This document shows positions 9,503 through 54,664 of a stretch of 64,000 bases of DNA, one piece after another. Source of the stretch: an uncultured Alistipes sp. GTDB taxonomy: Bacteria > Bacteroidota > Bacteroidia > Bacteroidales > Rikenellaceae. The DNA is taken from positions 53,612 to 117,611 of the forward strand of contig CANBCZ010000003.1 in assembly GCA_947367255.1 (NCBI GenBank), read 5' to 3'. The notes under the pieces were generated by a model. The model was not told where the DNA came from. It saw only the letters and a list, made by a program, of their open reading frames with translations, and made no database searches. The first letter of the stretch is position 1, and each line of letters starts with the position of its first letter. A program made the position numbers and the translations under genes.

Positions 9503-12166
9503 ATGGAGAACGAAACAAAGAAATTACGCCTTATTCAAGTAGCAAAGGAGTTCAAGGTGGGTCTTAACACCGTTACCGACTTCTTGCGCAAGAAGGGTGT
9601 AGCTATCGACGGCTCGCCCAACACACAGATTAGTGGAGATATCTATGCAATGGTAGAGAAGGAGTTCGGTGCAAACCGCACTTCAGGCTCTGCACGCGAC
9701 AATATCCGCGAGAAGATCTCAACAAAGCAGGCTACCGTATCTATCGAGGAGCCTAAGGCTGAGCCTAAGCGCACCATCGAGGTTAAGGACGAGGTACAGC
9801 AGCCGAAGATTCTCGGTCGCGTAGAGCTCGACAAGAATGGCAACATCGTGAAGCCACAGCCAAAGGCTGAGCCTAAGCCGGAGCCAAAGCCTCAGCCAAA
9901 AGTAGAGCCGAAAGTAGAGCCTGCACCTCAGCCTGCACCACAGCCAAAGGCTGAGCCTGTAGCTGTTGAGCCAAAGGAGAATGGTGCATTCCGTGCTACT
10001 GCTACCCCAACACTGAGCGGTCCTCAGATTTTGGGTAAGATTGACGTATCGGGTATGGTTCCCGGTGGCAAGCGTCGTAAGAAGATTGACAAGGAGAAGG
10101 TCGATATCACTCGCCAGCAGCAGCCTCAGCAGGGCGGCGGCAAGAAGAATCGTCCAGACTTCAAGCAGAATAACAACAATAACAACCAGCAGAATCAGCA
10201 GCAGGGCGGTGGCAAGAAGAACAAGCATCAGAAGCCACAGCCAAAGCCTGTAGTTCGTCCGGAGGTATCGGATGAGGAGGTTTCAAAGCAGGTAAAGGAT
10301 ACCCTTGCTCGTCTGACTGCAAAGGGTGCCAAGAATAAGGGTGCCAAGTACCGCAAGGAGAAGCGCGAGGAGGTACAGCAGCGTATGAACGAGGCTGTAG
10401 AGCGCGAGGAGATGGAGCGCAAGGTGCTCAAGGTTACAGAGTTTGTAACCGTGAGCGAGCTTGCAACAATGATGAATGTATCTCCGATGGAGGTTATCTC
10501 GGCTTGTATGAACCTCGGACTTATGGTATCTATCAACCAGCGTCTGGATGCAGAGGCTCTCGTAGTGGTTGCCGAGGAGTTCGGCTTTACCACCGAGTTC
10601 GTATCTGTAGAGATTCAGGAGGCTATCGGTGACGACGAGGTAGATGAGGCAGAGGATCTGCTCCCACGTCCGCCAATTGTAACCGTAATGGGTCACGTAG
10701 ACCACGGTAAGACCTCGCTGCTCGACAATATCCGTAAGACCAACGTTATCGCCGGCGAGGCGGGTGGTATCACCCAGCACATCGGTGCATACTCTGTTGA
10801 GCTGAATGGTCAGAAGATTACATTCCTCGATACTCCGGGTCACGAGGCGTTTACAGCGATGCGTGCGCGTGGTGCGAAGATTACCGACGTTGCAATTATC
10901 ATCGTTGCGGCTGATGACAGCGTGATGCCTCAGACTATCGAGGCTATCAACCACGCACAGGCTGCGGGCGTACCTATGGTATTTGCAATCAACAAGATTG
11001 ATAAGCCGGCTGCAAATGTTGAGCGCATCAAGGAGCAGCTTGCAAATATGAACTTCCTCGTTGAGGATTGGGGCGGTAAGTACCAGAGCCAGGATGTCTC
11101 TGCAAAGCAGGGTCTGAACCTCGACAAACTCCTTGAGAAGGTGCTTCTCGAGGCGGAGCTTCTCGACCTTAAGGCAAATCCTAACAAGCGCGCTAAGGGT
11201 GCCGTTATCGAGTCTACACTCGACAAGGGTCGTGGTTATGTAGCAACTGTCCTTGTTCAGGATGGTACACTGCGTATCGGTGATGTAGTACTCTCGGGTA
11301 CATACACCGGTCGTGTAAAGGCTATGTTTGACGAGAATGGTAAGAAGGTTACCGAGGCAGGACCTGCAACACCTGTACAGTTGCTCGGTCTTAACGGTGC
11401 ACCACAGGCGGGTGACTCATTCAACGTTATGGAGGATGACCGCTCGGCTCGTGAGGTGGCAAACAAGCGTGAGCAGCTTCAGCGTATGCAGGGTCTGATG
11501 ACTCAGAAGCACGTAACACTCGACGAGATTGGTCGTCGTATCGCTATCGGTTCGTTCAAGGAGCTCAATATTATCGTTAAGGGTGACGTGGATGGCTCTG
11601 TAGAGGCTATGTCAGGCTCACTGATTAAGCTCTCTAAGGAGACTGTTCAGGTAAATGTTATCCACTCTGCCGTTGGTCAGATTTCGGAGAGCGACGTACT
11701 GCTCGCAACTGCTTCTAACGCAATTATCGTCGGCTTCCAGGTTCGTCCGTCGGCTGCCGCTCGTCGTCTTGCCGAGAAGGAGGAGATTGAGATTCGTCTC
11801 TACTCTATCATCTACGACGCAATCAACGAGATTAAGGACGCTATCGAGGGTATGCTCGAGCCGGTAATGAAGGAGGAGATTGTCTGCTCTGTCGAGGTAC
11901 TCGAGACCTTCAAGATCTCTAAGGTCGGTACTATTGCCGGTGGTATTGTTCGCGAGGGTAAGATTCAGCGTAACACCCCTATCCGCGTAATCCGTGACGG
12001 TATCGTTATCCACACCGGTCGTCTTGGCTCTCTCAAGCGTTTCAAGGACGATGTTAAGGAGGTACTGACAGGTCACGACTGCGGTCTGAACATCGAGTCT
12101 TACAACGACATCAAGGTCGGCGATATTATCGAGGGCTACGAGCAGGTCGAAGTAAAGAGAAAGTAA
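9503..12166 (+). CDS. infB: Translation initiation factor IF-2
   Basis: [34 protein letters not shown]; start set at MENETKK. Confidence 0.98.
9854..10240 (+). repeat. Low-complexity P/K/E and Q/N coding repeats in the IF-2 N-terminal linker
   Basis: [33 protein letters not shown]; [11 protein letters not shown] ... [17 protein letters not shown]. Confidence 0.8.
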
Positions 12167-12198
12167 TTTCACAACCTAATACTAAATAATTAAGAGCT

Positions 12199-13512
12199 AT
12201 GATTAAGTTTGTAACAGCAGAAGAGGCTGTAAAGGTAATCAAGTCAGGTGATCACATTCACCTCAGTTCAGTTGCATCGGCACCTCAGTGCCTGATTAAG
12301 GCTATGTGCGACCGCGGTCGCAATGGCGAGCTTAAGGATGTACACATCCACCACCTCCACACAGAGGGTCCTGCGCCATACGCAGATCCTGAGTTCGATG
12401 GCGTATTCCAGCTCGATTCATTCTTCGTGGGTGGTAATGTGCGCAAGGTAACCCAGAGCGGTTATGCTGACTACATTCCAATTTTCTTGAGCGAGACACA
12501 GAAGCTCTATCGTAGTGGCGCAGTGCCTTGTAATGTAGCTATGATTCAGGTATCTACACCTGACAAGCACGGCTATGTATCTCTCGGTACATCTGTAGAT
12601 GCTACTCTGGCAGCTGTTGAGTGCGCAGATCACGTAATTGCAGTTGTGAACAAGTATGTTCCACGTGCATTCGGTGATGCAATGATCCACAGCTCAAAGA
12701 TCGAGTTCTTCGTAGAGGACGATCAGCCACTCGAGGAGGCTCACTTCGCAGCTCCAAACGAGGTTGAGACTAAGATTGGTAACCTCTGCGCAGGTCTTAT
12801 CGAGGATGGTGCTACCCTTCAGATGGGTATCGGCGCTATTCCTAACGCAGTACTCGCACAGCTGGGTAACCACAAGAACCTCGGTGTTCATACCGAGATG
12901 TTCGCTGACGGTGTGCTCCCACTCGTAGAGAAGGGCGTAATCAACGGCGCAGCAAAGAATATCGATAAGGGTAAGATGGTATCTACCTTCCTTATGGGTT
13001 CACAGAAGGTTTACGACTTTATCGACGACAACCCGGGCGTACTGATGATGGACGTAGGTTACACTAACGACCCATTCATCATTGCAAAGAACGACCGCGT
13101 AACTGCTATCAACTCTGCTCTGCAGGTAGATATCACCGGTCAGGTTTGCGCTGACTCTCTCGGTCGCAAGTTCTACTCAGGCGTAGGTGGTCAGGTAGAC
13201 TTTATCTATGGTGCATCACTCTCTAAGGGTGGTAAGGCTATTATCGCAATGCCTTCTATCACTAATAAGGGTGTATCTAAGATCTCTGATGTTCTTACCG
13301 AGGGTGCAGGTGTTGTTACAACTCGTAACCACATCCACTGGTTCGTTACTGAGAATGGTGCTGTAGATCTCTACGGCAAGAGCCTGCAGGAGCGTGCTCG
13401 CCTTATCATCTCTGTTGCTCACCCATCAGCACAGGAGGCTCTCGACGAGGCTGCATTCAACCGCTACGGCAGCCACCACCACTATATTAAGGGGTATATG
13501 GACAAGAAGTAA
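12199..13512 (+). CDS. Acetyl-CoA hydrolase/transferase family CoA-transferase (Cat2/4-hydroxybutyrate CoA-transferase-like)
   Basis: LQMGIGAIPNAVL, HTEMF, INSALQVDITGQV, SGVGGQVDF, VTENGAVDL. Confidence 0.9.
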   Translation: MIKFVTAEEAVKVIKSGDHIHLSSVASAPQCLIKAMCDRGRNGELKDVHIHHLHTEGPAPYADPEFDGVFQLDSFFVGGNVRKVTQSGYADYIPIFLSETQKLYRSGAVPCNVAMIQVSTPDKHGYVSLGTSVDATLAAVECADHVIAVVNKYVPRAFGDAMIHSSKIEFFVEDDQPLEEAHFAAPNEVETKIGNLCAGLIEDGATLQMGIGAIPNAVLAQLGNHKNLGVHTEMFADGVLPLVEKGVINGAAKNIDKGKMVSTFLMGSQKVYDFIDDNPGVLMMDVGYTNDPFIIAKNDRVTAINSALQVDITGQVCADSLGRKFYSGVGGQVDFIYGASLSKGGKAIIAMPSITNKGVSKISDVLTEGAGVVTTRNHIHWFVTENGAVDLYGKSLQERARLIISVAHPSAQEALDEAAFNRYGSHHHYIKGYMDKK

Positions 13513-13574
13513 TCTTTGCGGTTACTTATCTATATGCAAGGCTTTCTCTTCTGGGAAGGCCTTCTTTTTACCCC

Positions 13575-13655
13575 TTAATATAGTGGTGTAAACACCACCT
13601 TTTGTGTTACCTATCCCCCAAACCCCCTTTCTGTAAAGGGGGCTTCTCGCTACGC
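13575..13655 (+). repeat. Degenerate direct repeat copy 1 (TTAATATAG-GGTG/CACC hairpin-CCCCC/GGGGG hairpin-GCTACGC)
   Basis: Aligns by eye with 13767-13855. Confidence 0.7.
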
Positions 13656-13732
13656 TCCAATTAAGGAGTTATACCTTAGAGTACAATATATCAAAAGCTA
13701 TATGAAGAAGTAAGCATTTCTTCGTATAATCA

Positions 13733-13762
13733 CAAAGGTCTCCCCAAAAGGAGACCTTTGTT
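13733..13762. terminator. Terminator-like hairpin between the two repeats
   Basis: caaaggtctcc-ccaaaa-ggagacctttg. Confidence 0.6.
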
Positions 13763-13766
13763 GCTT

Positions 13767-13855
13767 TTAATATAGCGGTGGTGCCAAAAAACACCACCTT
13801 CTTTTATGTTACCCACCCCCTAAATCCCCCTCCTGTGAGGGGGACTTTGCTACGC
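13767..13855 (+). repeat. Degenerate direct repeat copy 2
   Basis: ttaatatagcggtggtg...caccacc...ccccctaaatccccctcctgtgagggggact..gctacgc. Confidence 0.7.
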
Positions 13856-13884
13856 AGTACATTTTGAACAAGCCCCCAAATATA

Positions 13885-13916
13885 TTTGCTCGTTCAGAAA
13901 TAATTTTTTAACTTTG
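13885..13916 (+). promoter_or_regulatory. Bacteroidetes sigmaA promoter
   Basis: TTTG (13885-13888), 20-nt spacer, TAACTTTG (13909-13916). Confidence 0.75.
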
Positions 13917-13920
13917 TAGG

Positions 13921-14204
13921 GCAATCCTCGGATTGCAGACATATTATTAGTGAAAGTGTTTCGCTAATCCTTATTGAGAAATCTGGTAAATTTCAAATGT
14001 ATCAAGGATAACGAATGCTTACATCACTTGTATTAGTATGCTATGTAGGCACATTCTGTGCCTACATAGCATACTATACAGGTGTGGAGTATTGTTTATT
14101 TGATACAAGGCTTACCAGAGCCTCTCAATAGATAAACGAACATCTCCACACTTTCTTTATTTTATAATCCGCCTAATGGAGATAGGGCGACAAAACTATT
14201 TTTT
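13921..14204 (+). ncRNA. Long structured 5' leader / candidate cis-regulatory RNA
   Basis: Nested inverted blocks from 13952 to 14155 ending in a perfect 20-bp stem (14034-14053/14057-14076); alternative stem 14082-14099/14132-14151 followed by a U-rich tract. Confidence 0.55.
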
Positions 14205-14654
14205 ATGAAAAAGTTTCTACAATTTTTTATCATTGCAGTAGTAGGTTGCTGCGTTAGCATTTCTTGTGAGAAAGAAAATGCAGGAGGTATAGGAAGTATG
14301 GAGGATCTTGTAGGCACATATTCTGTTAATTTAGAACAGAACATTGTGTGGGGAGGAGACTCGGGAACAGCATATGATAGCGGAACAATTACTATTACCA
14401 AGACATCTGGTAATAGAGTTAAATTAAGAGGATTTATTTCAACCACAGGAGAACTTATCAATGGTAAACTTCATCTGGATTCAAATACTAGCACAGACAG
14501 CTATGGATATCTAACAACAACATATAACAGCGTCATATTTGGAGGTGGTATTATAACAATATGGGCAAGGACATCAGGTCAATTGGCAACAACTCCATAT
14601 GGAACTAAATACTCATTTAGCAGTCTTGATTATTTTGAAGGCAGGAAATACTAA
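14205..14654 (+). CDS. Hypothetical surface lipoprotein (AT-rich, beta-rich, possibly lipocalin-like)
   Basis: Signal peptide II ending ISC followed by EKEN; own promoter; stop followed by a hairpin. Confidence 0.75.
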   Translation: MKKFLQFFIIAVVGCCVSISCEKENAGGIGSMEDLVGTYSVNLEQNIVWGGDSGTAYDSGTITITKTSGNRVKLRGFISTTGELINGKLHLDSNTSTDSYGYLTTTYNSVIFGGGIITIWARTSGQLATTPYGTKYSFSSLDYFEGRKY

Positions 14655-14670
14655 ACATCTGCCACAATAA

Positions 14671-14706
14671 CGCACAATGGGTGTCCTGTCAGACACCCAT
14701 TGTGCG
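14671..14706. terminator. Hairpin between convergent genes
   Basis: cgcacaatgggtgtc-ctgtca-gacacccattgtgcg, 15-bp perfect stem. Confidence 0.7.
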
Positions 14707-14723
14707 TTTTATCAATCATTGAG

Positions 14724-15074
14724 CTACAATGTAAACGTATCTCTCTCGCACACCTCGAGCAGTTGCTCCCAGAGGTGAGTTTGGTCGGCGTTCATAGCGC
14801 CATCGATGGTGGCGACGGAGTAAAGGAGATCTTTTGCCCACTCGAGCTCCTCGTCGCCGAGTGTTGTGAGTGCTGCGGCTGAGGTATTAAAGTCGAGAAA
14901 GCCTGACATACGTACTGCCGTCTCCATATTTTCAGGGTCAAGGAATGCTGCCAGTCCATAGACCAATTTCTTTGCGGCAGCCTCGTTCTGAGGGTTGTCG
15001 CTCTGTCCTATCAATAATTGACCGATACGCATTATGGCGCAGAGGTCTCGCATCATAAATTGCATACTACTCAA
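14724..15074 (-). CDS. Small TerB-like helical protein
   Basis: LLYSVATIDGAMNADQ resembles the TerB (A)DG motif; overlaps the upstream gene by 8 nt. Confidence 0.5.
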   Translation of the reverse strand: MSSMQFMMRDLCAIMRIGQLLIGQSDNPQNEAAAKKLVYGLAAFLDPENMETAVRMSGFLDFNTSAAALTTLGDEELEWAKDLLYSVATIDGAMNADQTHLWEQLLEVCERDTFTL

Positions 15075-15855
15075 GTCTTAGAAGTTCACCAACTGCTGCA
15101 TTTATCTCGATATATGCGTTCTCAATAAGCGCAGCCGAGGTAAAGCCCATAAGTTTATAGCCGCTATCACTCTCAAGAGCAAAGACGATATTTCCCTTAA
15201 TCTCTGCGCCCGAGCCATAGAGGAGTGTTCCGGTCATATTATCGCCGATATCCTCCTTTTGGTAGCCCTCTCTATCGACAAGGAATACAAGGTGGCAGCC
15301 AACAAGTCCCAACTGCTTTGAAAGGGTATTCAGAGGTGCTGTATAACGAACAATCTCTGTTCTATTAGCGCCAATATGCTCTGCAATATCTGCATCGAGT
15401 TCCTGCCAATTCTCCGCCTTGCTCTGGAAAGGATATGCAAGGCCATTTGTCTTTGCTGCGAGGAATGTCGGAGCGATAACATCGTCAGGATTGTCCACCA
15501 GCGGTGTTGCAGGCTCCGGCAGACCGCAGAGGTTACGTGTGCCGTTAAACAATACCATCTTCTTCTCAGAGATCTGCTCGTCTGCACGAACAATATCGGC
15601 ATAGACATTGACCAGCTTCAGCTTAACATCTACATCTAATGATTTTACCAGCTCTACAGACCTCTCCATAGTGAGGTTTTCGTTGTTCTTGACACAATCC
15701 AGAACCTTCTGCATTGCCTCGTTGGTAAAGCCATTTATACCTCCGTAGAACTTCTCAAGAGGCACAACTGACTCCGGCTTAAGGTCGCCATCTGCCCAAA
15801 CAATAGCCATACCGATATTATAAATAGCCGCAAGAGTCTCAATTGTAACTTTCAT
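15067..15855 (-). CDS. TerB-like N-terminal domain fused to a DUF3846-like domain
   Basis: Two AD(G/E) helical repeats (WADGDL, VRADEQIS); C-terminal FLVDREG...NMTGTLLY...IKGNIVF resembles DUF3846. Confidence 0.5.
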   Translation of the reverse strand: MKVTIETLAAIYNIGMAIVWADGDLKPESVVPLEKFYGGINGFTNEAMQKVLDCVKNNENLTMERSVELVKSLDVDVKLKLVNVYADIVRADEQISEKKMVLFNGTRNLCGLPEPATPLVDNPDDVIAPTFLAAKTNGLAYPFQSKAENWQELDADIAEHIGANRTEIVRYTAPLNTLSKQLGLVGCHLVFLVDREGYQKEDIGDNMTGTLLYGSGAEIKGNIVFALESDSGYKLMGFTSAALIENAYIEINAAVGELLRLE

Positions 15856-16009
15856 AGTCTATTTCGATTTAGGTTAGTACTCACATGGTATGTTATATAC
15901 AAATATACGAATATTTTATGAATATGTTACATTTTTCAGAATATTTTTGCAGACATCAAAGGTTTCATCAGGTCGTGGCAGATACTCGCTTCAATCAAAA
16001 TAACATAAT

Positions 16010-53371: not shown

Positions 53372-54664
53372 TTATATAAATATATACTTAAGGACAAAGA
53401 GTACTGCCAGAATATACATTGCAGGAGTCAATTTGCTAAACTTACCGCAAATCATATTCATCAGCACATATGAAATCATACCCAAAAGAATACCGTTAGA
53501 GATAGAGTATGAGAATGGCATCATTACAATACAAACGAATGCAGGAATTGCCTCTGAGAAGTCATCCAACGGAATCTGTGTAATCGGAGTCATCATCAAA
53601 AGACCCACAATAATCAGCGCAGGAGCAGTTGCCGCTGCCGGGATAGAGAGGAAGAGCGGCGAGAAGAAGAGCGCCACTGCAAAGCAGCACGCAATAGCAA
53701 AGGCGGTAAGACCTGAGCGACCACCCTGAGCAACACCTGCTGCACTCTCTACGTATGTTGTAGTGGTAGAAGTTCCGAGCATTGCACCTACTGTAGTTGC
53801 GATAGCATCTGCCATAAACGCCTGCTTAAGGCGGCGAATATGACCATTCTCATCGACCATATGTGACTTTGTACATACACCAATAAGTGTACCAACGGTA
53901 TCAAACATATCGATAAAGAAGAAGGTAAACACAATTATCGCCATATCCATAGTAAAGATATGCTCCCACTCAAACTTACAGCAGATTGAACTGATAGACT
54001 CTGGATGAGAGATAATGCCCTTAAACTCGGTAACACCCATCGGAATACCGATAAGCATAGTAATAAGGATACCGATAAGGATTGAACCAGGGATACCTCG
54101 CATATACAAAAGTCCTGTGATAATCAGACCGATAAGGGCAAGCAGAGCCGAGCCTGAAGTAATATCACCAAGACCTACGAGTGTAGCCTCGTTGTTGACA
54201 ATAACACCTGCACTATTAAAACCAATAAAGGTAATAAAGAGTCCGATACCTACACCAATCGCTCTACGAAGACTCAGCGGAATTGCCTCAACAATTGCAT
54301 CTCGAACATTTGTAATGGTCAGAACAATAAAAATCAGACCCTCGATAAGCACTGCTGTAAGGGCAAACTGCCAAGAGTAACCCATACCGATACAGACGCT
54401 ATATACAAAGAATGCATTAAGACCCATACCTGGAGCAAGACCAAATGGAAGTTTACCCCAGAATGCCATTGCAAGACAACCTACAATAGCTGCGAGTGCT
54501 GTAGCGGTAAACACTGCACCGCTTGACATACCCTCAAGCTGACTAAAAATAGATGGGTTTACTGCAAGGATATACGACATTGTAAGGAATGTGGTAATTC
54601 CCGCAAAGATCTCCTTTTTGACCGTAGTTTGACTCGGGTCAAAACCGAATAGTTTGTTAAGCAT
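53372..54664 (-). CDS. AzgA-type NCS2 adenine/guanine permease
   Basis: GITTFLTMSYIL.VNP, LAPGMGLNAFF, DMFDTVGTL, TTTYVESAAG..GGRSG. Confidence 0.92.
   Translation of the reverse strand: MLNKLFGFDPSQTTVKKEIFAGITTFLTMSYILAVNPSIFSQLEGMSSGAVFTATALAAIVGCLAMAFWGKLPFGLAPGMGLNAFFVYSVCIGMGYSWQFALTAVLIEGLIFIVLTITNVRDAIVEAIPLSLRRAIGVGIGLFITFIGFNSAGVIVNNEATLVGLGDITSGSALLALIGLIITGLLYMRGIPGSILIGILITMLIGIPMGVTEFKGIISHPESISSICCKFEWEHIFTMDMAIIVFTFFFIDMFDTVGTLIGVCTKSHMVDENGHIRRLKQAFMADAIATTVGAMLGTSTTTTYVESAAGVAQGGRSGLTAFAIACCFAVALFFSPLFLSIPAAATAPALIIVGLLMMTPITQIPLDDFSEAIPAFVCIVMMPFSYSISNGILLGMISYVLMNMICGKFSKLTPAMYILAVLFVLKYIFI

Follow-up and report, generated by a model that had tools for sequence, protein, structure and literature searches.

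Bacteroidales are dominant in the gut and rumen, and how their accessory genes are controlled at the RNA level is, to our knowledge, barely understood. The closest described counterparts of the element discussed here are leader RNAs that alternate between two folds. In four-segment attenuators (those of trp and his, and those of PyrR, TRAP and BglG/LicT), pairings 1:2 and 3:4 alternate with pairing 2:3, and the G+C-rich 3:4 stem with its U-tract lies between the promoter and the first gene. Riboswitch platforms such as the OFF-type purine and cyclic di-GMP (c-di-GMP) classes also use exclusive terminator and antiterminator helices with a common strand and are strongly conserved, and many targets of c-di-GMP riboswitches are surface proteins. 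The CI RNA of phage P4 and the c4 RNAs of phages P1 and P7 are encoded in leaders, in which short complementary boxes of the same transcript lead to premature termination. Several of these traits are predicted at positions 13921-14204 of the 64,000-nt stretch that we analyzed (hereafter, the window; positions 53,612 to 117,611 of contig CANBCZ010000003.1 from an uncultured Alistipes sp., assembly GCA_947367255.1). In our judgement, held with moderate confidence, this region is the 5′ leader of a lipoprotein mRNA and a member of a large, as yet uncatalogued family of cis-acting attenuator leaders of Bacteroidales. As an RNA family it is new and apparently absent from catalogs, and its principle, terminator versus antiterminator, is a known one; unusual for RNAs of this kind are the antiterminator that consists of a whole rod, the pseudoknot beyond the terminator, and the portability together with a promoter.

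The RNA is proposed to consist of four conserved segments with two alternative partners each. In fold A, the rod, segment 1 would pair with segment 4 (helix P1) and segment 2 with segment 3 (helix P5), with the variable helices P2-P4 between them; because this ties up both halves of the terminator, RNA polymerase would read into the gene. In fold B, the 5′ half would be closed on itself by helix Pa, and probably by a 1:2 pairing, and the 3′ half would form a two-tier hairpin with a U-tract, that is, an intrinsic terminator at which transcription would stop at ~14155-14163. After read-through, the GGAGAU loop of a downstream hairpin may pair with AUCUCC just 5′ of the P1 3′ strand, and the resulting continuous stacked helix would lock fold A. 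The parts of the window copy are as follows:

13885-13916, + strand: Bacteroidetes-type promoter, with TTTG at 13885-88, a 20-nt spacer and TAACTTTG at 13909-16
13921-13936, + strand: small 5′ hairpin GCAAUC-CUCG-GAUUGC near the predicted transcript start, from predicted folds
13938-45, + strand: conserved GACAUAUU after the 5′ hairpin
13952-13959, + strand: segment 1, GAAAGUGU, the 5′ strand of P1; rod partner 14148-55
13968-13973, + strand: 5′ strand of Pa, UCCUUA (family consensus UCCUUG); partner 14003-08 in the alternative fold, with 13971-73 lying in P2 in the rod
13971-13979, + strand: 5′ strand of P2; partner 14123-31
13982-13989, + strand: 5′ strand of P3, UCUGGUAA; partner 14112-19
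13998-14005, + strand: 5′ strand of P4; partner 14100-07; overlaps the 3′ strand of Pa
14003-08, + strand: 3′ strand of Pa, CAAGGA; 13998-14008 when taken together with the P4 strand
14017-14033, + strand: segment 2, the 5′ strand of P5, GCUUACAUCACUUGUAU (family consensus ACACUCAUCAC); rod partner segment 3
14034-14076, + strand: apex hairpin, a perfect 20-bp stem with a 3-nt loop; common to both folds and the most variable part of the family
14080-14102, + strand: segment 3, GGUGUGGAG plus UUGUUUAUUUG; GGUGUGGAG is the 5′ strand of the outer terminator stem (14082-89) or the 3′ strand of P5, and UUGUUUAUUUG is the 5′ strand of the inner terminator stem (14092-14102) or the 3′ strand of P4
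14112-14131, + strand: 3′ strands of P3 (14112-19) and P2 (14123-31)
14129-14139, + strand: 3′ strand of the inner terminator stem, CAGAUAAACGA
14141-14155, + strand: segment 4, CAUCUCCACACUUUC, with three partners: AUCUCC (14142-47) with the downstream loop (pseudoknot), CUCCACAC (14144-51) with segment 3, and ACACUUUC (14148-55) with segment 1
14152-14163, + strand: U-tract UUUCUUUAUUUU directly after the G+C-rich terminator stem; family form UUUCUUUUU
14170-14189, + strand: downstream hairpin CGCC...GGCG with loop AAUGGAGAUA; found in almost every copy, its stem covarying
14205-14654, + strand: downstream lipoprotein gene, 149 aa (MKKFLQFFIIAVVGCCVSISC...), with homologues in Alistipes metagenome-assembled genomes

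Family loci were collected by pattern scans and blastn, and totals are given as lower bounds. Among the matches listed, >240 loci were found in Alistipes, Rikenella, Tidjanibacter, Bacteroides, Phocaeicola, Muribaculaceae, phage contigs and gut metagenomes. The scan of species-representative genomes (one genome per species), with a pattern on the 3′ blocks, contributed at least 120 loci among the matches listed and added other Rikenellaceae, Cryptobacteroides and Egerieisoma; the metagenome scan, with a second pattern anchored on helix P3 only, also contributed at least 120 among the matches listed. The first genome-scan pattern required GTGTGGRGTAYTGTTT and CTCCACACTTTC, and the invariance of both blocks in alignment A1 (119 non-identical copies, the basis of the rod covariation figures) is by construction. 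Since this pattern forced the terminator blocks, the terminator and P1 were re-tested on an unbiased set of 101 copies from the P3-anchored pattern, in which both were left unconstrained. Shuffled alignments and helix strands slid out of register served as covariation controls.

The rod was well supported by compensatory change. In A1, 94.5% of rod cells were paired, compared with 80.1 ± 0.4% after shuffling and 37-51% with slid strands; both-sided changes occurred in 512 cells (146 expected) and at 18 rod pairs, the covariation score was 0.416 (control, 0.145), and RNAalifold recovered P1-P5. P2 was the clearest helix (96.8% paired), with four pair types at most positions (e.g., UA 38, AU 33, GC 24, CG 22). 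P3 fell into discrete covarying classes (CUGGUAA/UUACCAG, CUGACAG/CUGUCAG, UUUGGCG/CGCCAAA and GUGGAAG/CUUCCAC), and the base of P4 was 92-100% paired with covariation. In P5, as drawn by RNAalifold, one-sided, G-U-compatible changes dominated (pair 163/253: UA 47, CG 40, UG 32). P1 was paired in 89-100% of the unbiased set at each position, and it showed compensatory changes as well as helix-length covariation, a shortening by 1 nt occurring on both strands at once. Additionally, P4 pair 131/277 was GU in 117 of the 119 copies of A1; conserved G-U pairs of this kind indicate a constraint on the + strand RNA and not on the DNA. Two local hairpins, GAAAU...AUUUC and AGGCU...AGCCU, were 84% and 69% paired with scant covariation, which lends them weak support. 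The 5′ strand of P3 could be the loop of a local hairpin that kisses its 3′ partner, which we offer as an idea and not as a finding.

The alternative fold was conserved as well. Its terminator is two-tiered, with an outer stem GUGUGGAG:CUCCACAC (family form GUGUGGRG:CUCCACAC), an inner stem UUGUUUAUUUG:CAGAUAAACGA and then the U-tract. The G+C-rich 3:4 stem with an immediate U-tract makes a canonical intrinsic terminator, and conserved pairings, P1 (1:4) and P5 (2:3), sequester the terminator strand. In the unbiased set, the outer stem was 98-100% paired at 8 of 8 positions. The inner stem was 92-95% paired, with some both-sided changes. The whole alternative fold was 94.9% paired (36-60% slid), and 10 of its pairs carried both-sided changes where 5.5 were expected, a value that 0 of 500 shuffles reached. 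Pa (UCCUUG:CAAGGA, 13968-73 / 14003-08) exists in the non-rod fold only and was 90% paired, compared with 35-68% slid; compensatory pairs were found at three positions (CG 107, UA 3 and GC 2; UA 78 and CG 10; UA 85 and CG 7), and in the unbiased set CG 81 stood beside UA 11. The nucleotides of Pa have other partners in the rod, and covary there too.

Segment 4, the strand shared by both folds, behaved as a strand with two partners should. Where its A was replaced by G, the opposite U was replaced by C in each of its partners, the 5′ strand of P1 and that of the terminator. The P1 5′ base, terminator 5′ base and shared 3′ base were U, U and A in 86 copies, C, C and G in 9 copies, and U, U and G, a wobble in both helices, in 2 copies; a C-A mismatch of any kind occurred in 0 copies. 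In diverged copies (L085b, L055b, L143, L153, L192, L214 and L216), P1, the terminator and the pseudoknot are rebuilt from different sequences. Segments 1 and 2 are complementary (GAUGA-GUGU / ACAC-UCAUC), and this complementarity is kept in L143 (GAGCGU:ACGCUC) and L085b (GCGU:ACGC), variants that are too few for statistics. In the window, AGUGA (13949-53) would pair with UCACU (14024-28), as predicted by a terminator-forced fold. The conserved blocks are thus accounted for, because each serves in two pairings.

Approximately 15 nt beyond the U-tract, nearly all copies carry a small hairpin; its stem covaries, and its loop, of the form ..AGGAGnnn.., is complementary to segment 4. In the window, GGAGAU (14178-83) matches AUCUCC (14142-47) over 6 bp; most copies have 7 bp of the general form nnnCUCC:GGAGnnn, in which the three nucleotides on the 3′ side of GGAG change in step with the three that precede CUCC. 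The classes of this extension included CAA:UUG (17), CGA:UCG (17), CAU:AUG (14), CAU:GUG (8), CGG:CCG (5) and also CUG:CAG. The mean contiguous extension was 2.76, compared with 1.59 ± 0.11 in 1000 shuffles, and in the unbiased set 53 of 94 copies had 7 of 7 pairs, compared with 25.7 (maximum 34) when shuffled; z was ~10 in two independent sets. The GGAG:CUCC core itself also covaries in diverged copies (GGUGC:GCACC, GGGACUG:CAGUCCC and GAGACUU:AAGUCUC). AUCUCC adjoins the 3′ strand of P1, and P1 and the pseudoknot, if stacked, would form a ~15-bp helix that fills all of segment 4. As its loop is transcribed after the U-tract, the pseudoknot has no influence on termination; it may instead lock the read-through fold, or act on translation or stability. 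The GGAG lies ~20-25 nt from the AUG, more than a normal Shine-Dalgarno site would allow. The pseudoknot loop is nevertheless Shine-Dalgarno-like in sequence, and one class of copies has GGAGGUG there. The phylum Bacteroidetes is mostly without Shine-Dalgarno pairing. The context of segment 4 (14137-14160), GAACAUCUCC-ACAC-UUUCUUU, resembles what we take to be the 3′ tail of Bacteroidetes 16S rRNA (..GAACACCUCCUUUCU), and the CUCC strand with its context, GAACAnCUCC...UUUCU, can presumably be likened to the same tail.

Taken together, the comparative data point to selection on both folds and on the pseudoknot. An earlier reading of the same DNA (hereafter, the first-pass annotation) had proposed the rod, a mutually exclusive terminator-like fold, and an attenuator or small RNA that controls a surface lipoprotein. 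The rod is upheld by covariation, and the exclusive terminator fold by the covariation of the shared strand with its partners in both P1 and the terminator; homologues with covariation were found across Bacteroidales. Each structural element of the attenuator or switch is thereby supported by comparison, and the regulation itself is what we infer. A specific tie to this lipoprotein did not hold: the element is instead a portable module that precedes hundreds of unrelated genes, and an orthologous lipoprotein locus is without it.

In the window copy, the sequence and a repeat finder returned every pairing that the first-pass annotation had drawn: gaaagtgt/acactttc at 13952-59 / 14148-55, tattgaga/tctcaata at 13972-79 / 14123-30, tctggtaa/ttaccaga at 13982-89 / 14112-19, tgtatcaa/ttgataca at 13998-14005 / 14100-07, the perfect 20-bp stem at 14034-53 / 14057-76, and the alternative gtgtggag/ctccacac at 14082-89 / 14144-51 with the U-run at 14152-63. 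Its inner gtttat/ataaac stem is also kept across the family, with compensatory changes in diverged copies. As predicted, 13921-14204 folded into one long hairpin, at −108.4 kcal/mol on the + strand compared with −56.0 ± 4.6 kcal/mol in 200 shuffles (z = −11.4; 0 shuffles as good); the minus strand folded more weakly, at −98.4 kcal/mol. What had been called a consensus promoter is, read from the sequence, of the Bacteroidetes type (TTTG, N20, TAACTTTG). A sigma-70 scan, which addresses a promoter type different from that of Bacteroidetes, found nothing at 13885-13916. The perfect 20-bp apex is not a conserved feature of the family: it occurs in this strain only, and the apex of relatives is imperfect and variable in length. 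Contigs from metatranscriptome runs X30 and X31 carry A14035G, A14047C, A14053G and changes at 14066-69, which give an imperfect stem like that of other Alistipes copies. Within the 64-kb window, blastn, a pattern search and nhmmer found no second copy.

All copies have the same order of parts (TAnnTTTG promoter, 5′ hairpin, ~200-nt rod, U-tract, hairpin with the GGAG loop, start codon) and the same orientation between promoter and open reading frame (ORF). The TAnnTTTG box was present in 116 of 118 copies, at a median of 37 nt 5′ of the P1 strand, and the ORF started at a median of 53 nt (interquartile range, 48-57) past the terminator strand, the window copy at 49 nt past CUUUC. The 5′ hairpin varies in sequence and keeps its fold: 99 of 105 distinct segments reached −4 kcal/mol or lower, with a mean of −9.0 kcal/mol compared with −3.7 kcal/mol when shuffled. 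Several assemblies carry 2-3 copies whose helix sequences differ. Loci with homologues of the window lipoprotein have the same leader, both in synteny (L004, L009) and in another context at 58% protein identity (L005-L008); in these leaders, invariant blocks are separated by helices that show compensatory changes. Regarding mobile DNA, a search of viral contigs with a 21-mer of the 5′ block found 4 contigs, in which the copies precede small ORFs followed by surface proteins with BspA-type leucine-rich repeats (LRR), DUF4988 or BACON; blastn against phage and plasmid collections found a B. finegoldii replicon and two human-gut scaffolds labeled as phage. In copies of the phage or prophage type (L010-L013, L020, L034, L117 and L124), a block ACTTTGTAACTACAATACCCCAAGAGTGTTGCGTATTGAGAAACATTTT is conserved just 5′ of the TAACTTTG box, ~60 nt upstream of the promoter box, and may be a second promoter or operator. 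Two metagenome contigs (L204 and L252) have only the P3 module in common with the family (GAAATCTGGTAAATTTC ... TTTACCAGAACCTC); their flanks differ and are without the CUCCACAC terminator block, and they may represent a distinct relative or a recombinant.

Evidence at the RNA level came from assembled metatranscriptome contigs, in which contig ends are not RNA ends and DNA carry-over is possible. Bovine and other gut contigs match the leader at 13921-14158, some of them exactly, and the ORF is less covered or uncovered. An 80-nt contig of run X25 (14079-14158) resembles a terminator-hairpin product, or it may just end at branch points of the assembly graph. Contigs of relatives pass the U-tract into the GGAG hairpin or sit in transcripts of several kb. 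Mouse-gut runs gave no usable RNA cover of the B. acidifaciens copy. Members of the family are transcribed, and the pattern is compatible with partial termination.

We propose that downstream expression depends on which fold is chosen and that some factor makes this choice. As the RNA is transcribed, the 5′ domain (Pa plus 1:2) can form first, and the outcome would then be a race. If segment 3 invades the 5′ domain and the rod zips from the apex before segment 4 emerges, read-through would follow; if the 5′ domain persists, segment 3 would be free, and the terminator would form and stop transcription. Stabilization of the 5′ domain, or an altered speed of transcription relative to strand exchange, would shift the balance towards termination. 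Candidate deciders are a protein, an RNA, a small molecule, and the speed of transcription and strand exchange themselves. Several observations weigh against a regulated attenuator. The downstream genes have no common pathway, and the data point to no effector. A nested-energy model, which does not count a possible 7-bp loop-loop contact via P3, favored the rod over the terminator fold in 115 of 116 copies (median, 12.9 kcal/mol; 8.6 kcal/mol in the window copy), and with such a lead the terminator may seldom form unaided. The evidence for the 1:2 pairing is its complementarity and a few variants, and, since the four switch segments are nearly invariant, the covariation of P1 and the terminator is limited to ~10 variant copies, possibly 5-6 lineages. 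Contig ends, which may be assembly-graph branch points, fix none of the 3′ ends at the U-tract. In addition, a related locus does without the element. In L003 (Alistipes sp. GCA_017463615.1, 2880-3056, compared with window 13860-14260), the promoter and 5′ hairpin are kept, as are the ~25 nt that directly precede the ATG, and the lipoprotein has 82% identity, but ~13936-14180 (~246 nt with the rod, terminator and pseudoknot module) is absent. The same promoter and gene can thus occur with no leader, which makes the leader dispensable there.

Part of this would suit a constitutive expression module, in which the rod, 5′ hairpin and pseudoknot stabilize the mRNA or set its translation, the whole is a portable cassette of promoter plus untranslated region for acquired genes, and the terminator-like pairing is a folding intermediate or a weak constitutive attenuator instead of a regulated switch. 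The stability of the rod, a unit that moves with its promoter and at a fixed distance in front of very diverse genes, the pseudoknot that lies 3′ of the termination point and so does not affect termination, and the dispensability seen in L003 all fit such a module. However, selection keeps a G+C-rich stem with a U-tract, Pa and the inner terminator stem, all of which are foreign to the rod, and unless the second fold is functional, it is difficult to account for the three-way covariation of the shared strand, so that we consider this explanation unlikely, if worth serious thought. Less likely again, in our view, is a stand-alone small RNA (sRNA) gene, a unit of ~235 nt from promoter to U-tract that acts in trans or sequesters a protein, with the next gene a mere neighbor or reached by incidental read-through. 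The element does come with a promoter of its own and ends in a canonical terminator, coverage by metatranscriptome contigs is better over the leader than over the ORF, and the rod shape is reminiscent of protein-binding RNAs; yet the leader keeps a fixed orientation and spacing relative to the next start codon, several copies per genome differ in their helix sequences, and the hairpin loop past the terminator covaries with the leader, which is sensible in a read-through transcript only.

A small-molecule riboswitch would be a special case of the attenuator reading, with the 5′ domain (1:2 plus Pa) as an aptamer whose ligand favors the terminator. The layout is of the OFF type, in that the closing strand of the 5′ domain is also part of the antiterminator and a terminator follows, and the conserved blocks are long. 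Those blocks, however, are all explained by their double pairing roles, and the strands of P2, P3 and P4 are free to vary and have their partners in the 3′ half, which leaves no fixed pocket. Furthermore, among the downstream genes we found no common pathway or transport function, which tells against a riboswitch for a metabolite and favors a general module that controls or expresses accessory genes; we regard a riboswitch as very doubtful. A palindromic mobile element at the DNA level, inserted by chance in a 5′ untranslated region, deserves hardly any credence. Like miniature inverted-repeat transposable elements (MITE), repetitive extragenic palindromes (REP) or enterobacterial repetitive intergenic consensus (ERIC) sequences, the element is a long imperfect palindrome in transcribed intergenic DNA that folds on the minus strand too and is present or absent between orthologous loci, and the genome is rich in other hairpin repeats. 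Unlike ERIC or MITE repeats, it has its own promoter and a single orientation and position, between promoter and ORF and at a fixed distance; its U-tract and conserved G-U pairs are strand-specific, its copies have diverged with compensatory changes instead of being near-identical, the window holds no other copy, and the pseudoknot, Pa and terminator are conserved features that are not palindromic.

Returning to the attenuator reading, a broader version of it appears possible to us but is put forward tentatively. Here, the leader would be a universal, bistable RNA (rod versus two-domain terminator form, possibly interconverted via the P3 loop-loop contact) that reads the global state of the cell and controls dozens of horizontally acquired surface, phage and defense genes per genome, with the pseudoknot as a second layer at the level of translation or stability. 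The inputs considered were elongation rate, an RNA chaperone or helicase, temperature, and a protein or second messenger.

The likeness to described systems has its limits. Unlike classical attenuators, the element has no conserved leader peptide, its segment 1 also pairs with segment 4, its antiterminated form is the full 200-nt rod, in which three extra covarying helices join the halves, it has a pseudoknot beyond the terminator and no known binding protein, and it precedes hundreds of unrelated genes and not one operon. A leader-peptide attenuator of the trp/his type was rejected on the ground that no short ORF over segment 1 is conserved. In the window leader, no conserved ORF was found, and the sole ATG (13998) opens 4 codons in the variable P4 strand. 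In contrast to riboswitches, neither a junction of several helices nor a conserved pocket is evident, the strands inside the putative sensor are free to vary, Rfam gave no match, and the gene context suggests no ligand. For the analogy to P4 CI and P1 c4 drawn in the first-pass annotation, the intramolecular boxes and the proposed premature termination are shared, and copies of the element do occur in phage and prophage contigs; overall the likeness is loose, as P4 CI and c4 RNAs are released by processing and have repeated target boxes in trans, whereas all pairings of the element are intramolecular, and there was no sign of processing or, on the basis of complementarity only, of trans targets.

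The first-pass annotation had also called the RNA a candidate new one, and the comparison with known classes bears this out. With Rfam 15 (window 12000-16000, E <= 10), the best match over the element was mir-568, at 35 bits against a gathering score of 75, and six other copy-bearing loci gave 0 matches at E <= 0.1; no family matched. Sub-threshold microRNA-like matches were set aside as generic hairpin matches to the perfect apex. In the papers covered, a literature search by conserved 12-15-mers and by topic found no description of the element. 6S RNA is a single-copy rod of ~180-200 nt with a central bubble like an open promoter, and was rejected because the element has no Rfam 6S match, is multi-copy, lies in a leader and is missing from an orthologous locus. 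T-box leaders, retron noncoding RNAs, and the omega and bridge RNAs associated with insertion sequences were dropped, as there was no Rfam match and no adjacent reverse transcriptase, IscB or IS110 gene, and the element is a multi-copy leader. The sRNAs FopS and GibS, which Rfam includes, are short: a terminator hairpin follows a single-stranded R1 seed, and susC mRNAs are their targets in trans (PMC11697453). They form, likewise, a multicopy conserved promoter-plus-terminator unit in Bacteroidaceae that was possibly spread by phages (PMC11697453). Identity with them was rejected, the element being a rod of ~235 nt that serves as a cis leader and has no Rfam match.

The first ORFs 3′ of the leader encode 180 distinct proteins, of which 108 have signal-peptide-like and 53 lipobox-like N-termini. 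The downstream genes are highly diverse, and exported or surface proteins make up most of their products. Pfam searches of 128 downstream proteins matched a minority: BACON (9), LRR_5 of the BspA type (8), DUF4988 (8) and REase-ARP (3), as well as Mfa-like fimbrillin, outer-membrane beta-barrels, CHAT and AbiGi; PADLOC found few defense proteins. The leader is an abundant multi-copy element of at least three families and of their phages, with an unusually clear comparative signature of two exclusive folds, and it precedes variable surface lipoproteins, BspA/LRR adhesin-like proteins, small peptides and defense genes, through which interactions with the host, with phages and within the community are shaped. 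As a regulated switch, it would add a class to Rfam and be a control point for a whole regulon that has not been described before; as a constitutive module, it would be a natural portable expression cassette, useful in Bacteroides engineering. Both outcomes can be tested directly in cultured carriers, among them Bacteroides acidifaciens DSM 15896 (L085), Phocaeicola faecicola AGMB03916 (L045) and B. finegoldii (L014).

Approximately 10 copies precede peptides of ~40 aa that end in W. At nine loci (L023, L024, L038, L066, L074, L087, L098, L121 and L122), the first ORF belongs to a recurrent peptide family of ~38-51 aa with the core ..Y(L/I)APE.EV..V.VEQGF.., mostly W-terminated (e.g., L038 and L098), which could be a precursor peptide or bacteriocin-like.

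The gene after the window leader (14205-14654, + strand) encodes a 149-aa lipoprotein that matched no Pfam or PHROG family, and is flanked by genes for initiation factor IF-2, an acetyl-CoA hydrolase/transferase and a SurA-like peptidyl-prolyl isomerase. The Alistipes that carries it comes from bovine gut or manure. In a 1619-nt contig of run X26, 13767 is joined to 14731 with 65 other letters between them, and 13488 is joined to 13693. A related strain is therefore without the first of two repeats and the entire cassette of promoter, leader and lipoprotein, and the space that follows the CoA-transferase gene has the look of a hotspot for insertions. The two repeats (13575-13655 and 13767-13855) are direct, ~85 bp long and each placed directly after a terminator hairpin. 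Many different metatranscriptome contigs match the repeat core at 13807-13847 (CCCCCTAAATCCCCCTCCTGTGAGGGGGAC...), with a word depth of ~100 and above and diverse flanks, so this core looks like a dispersed, transcribed REP-like element.

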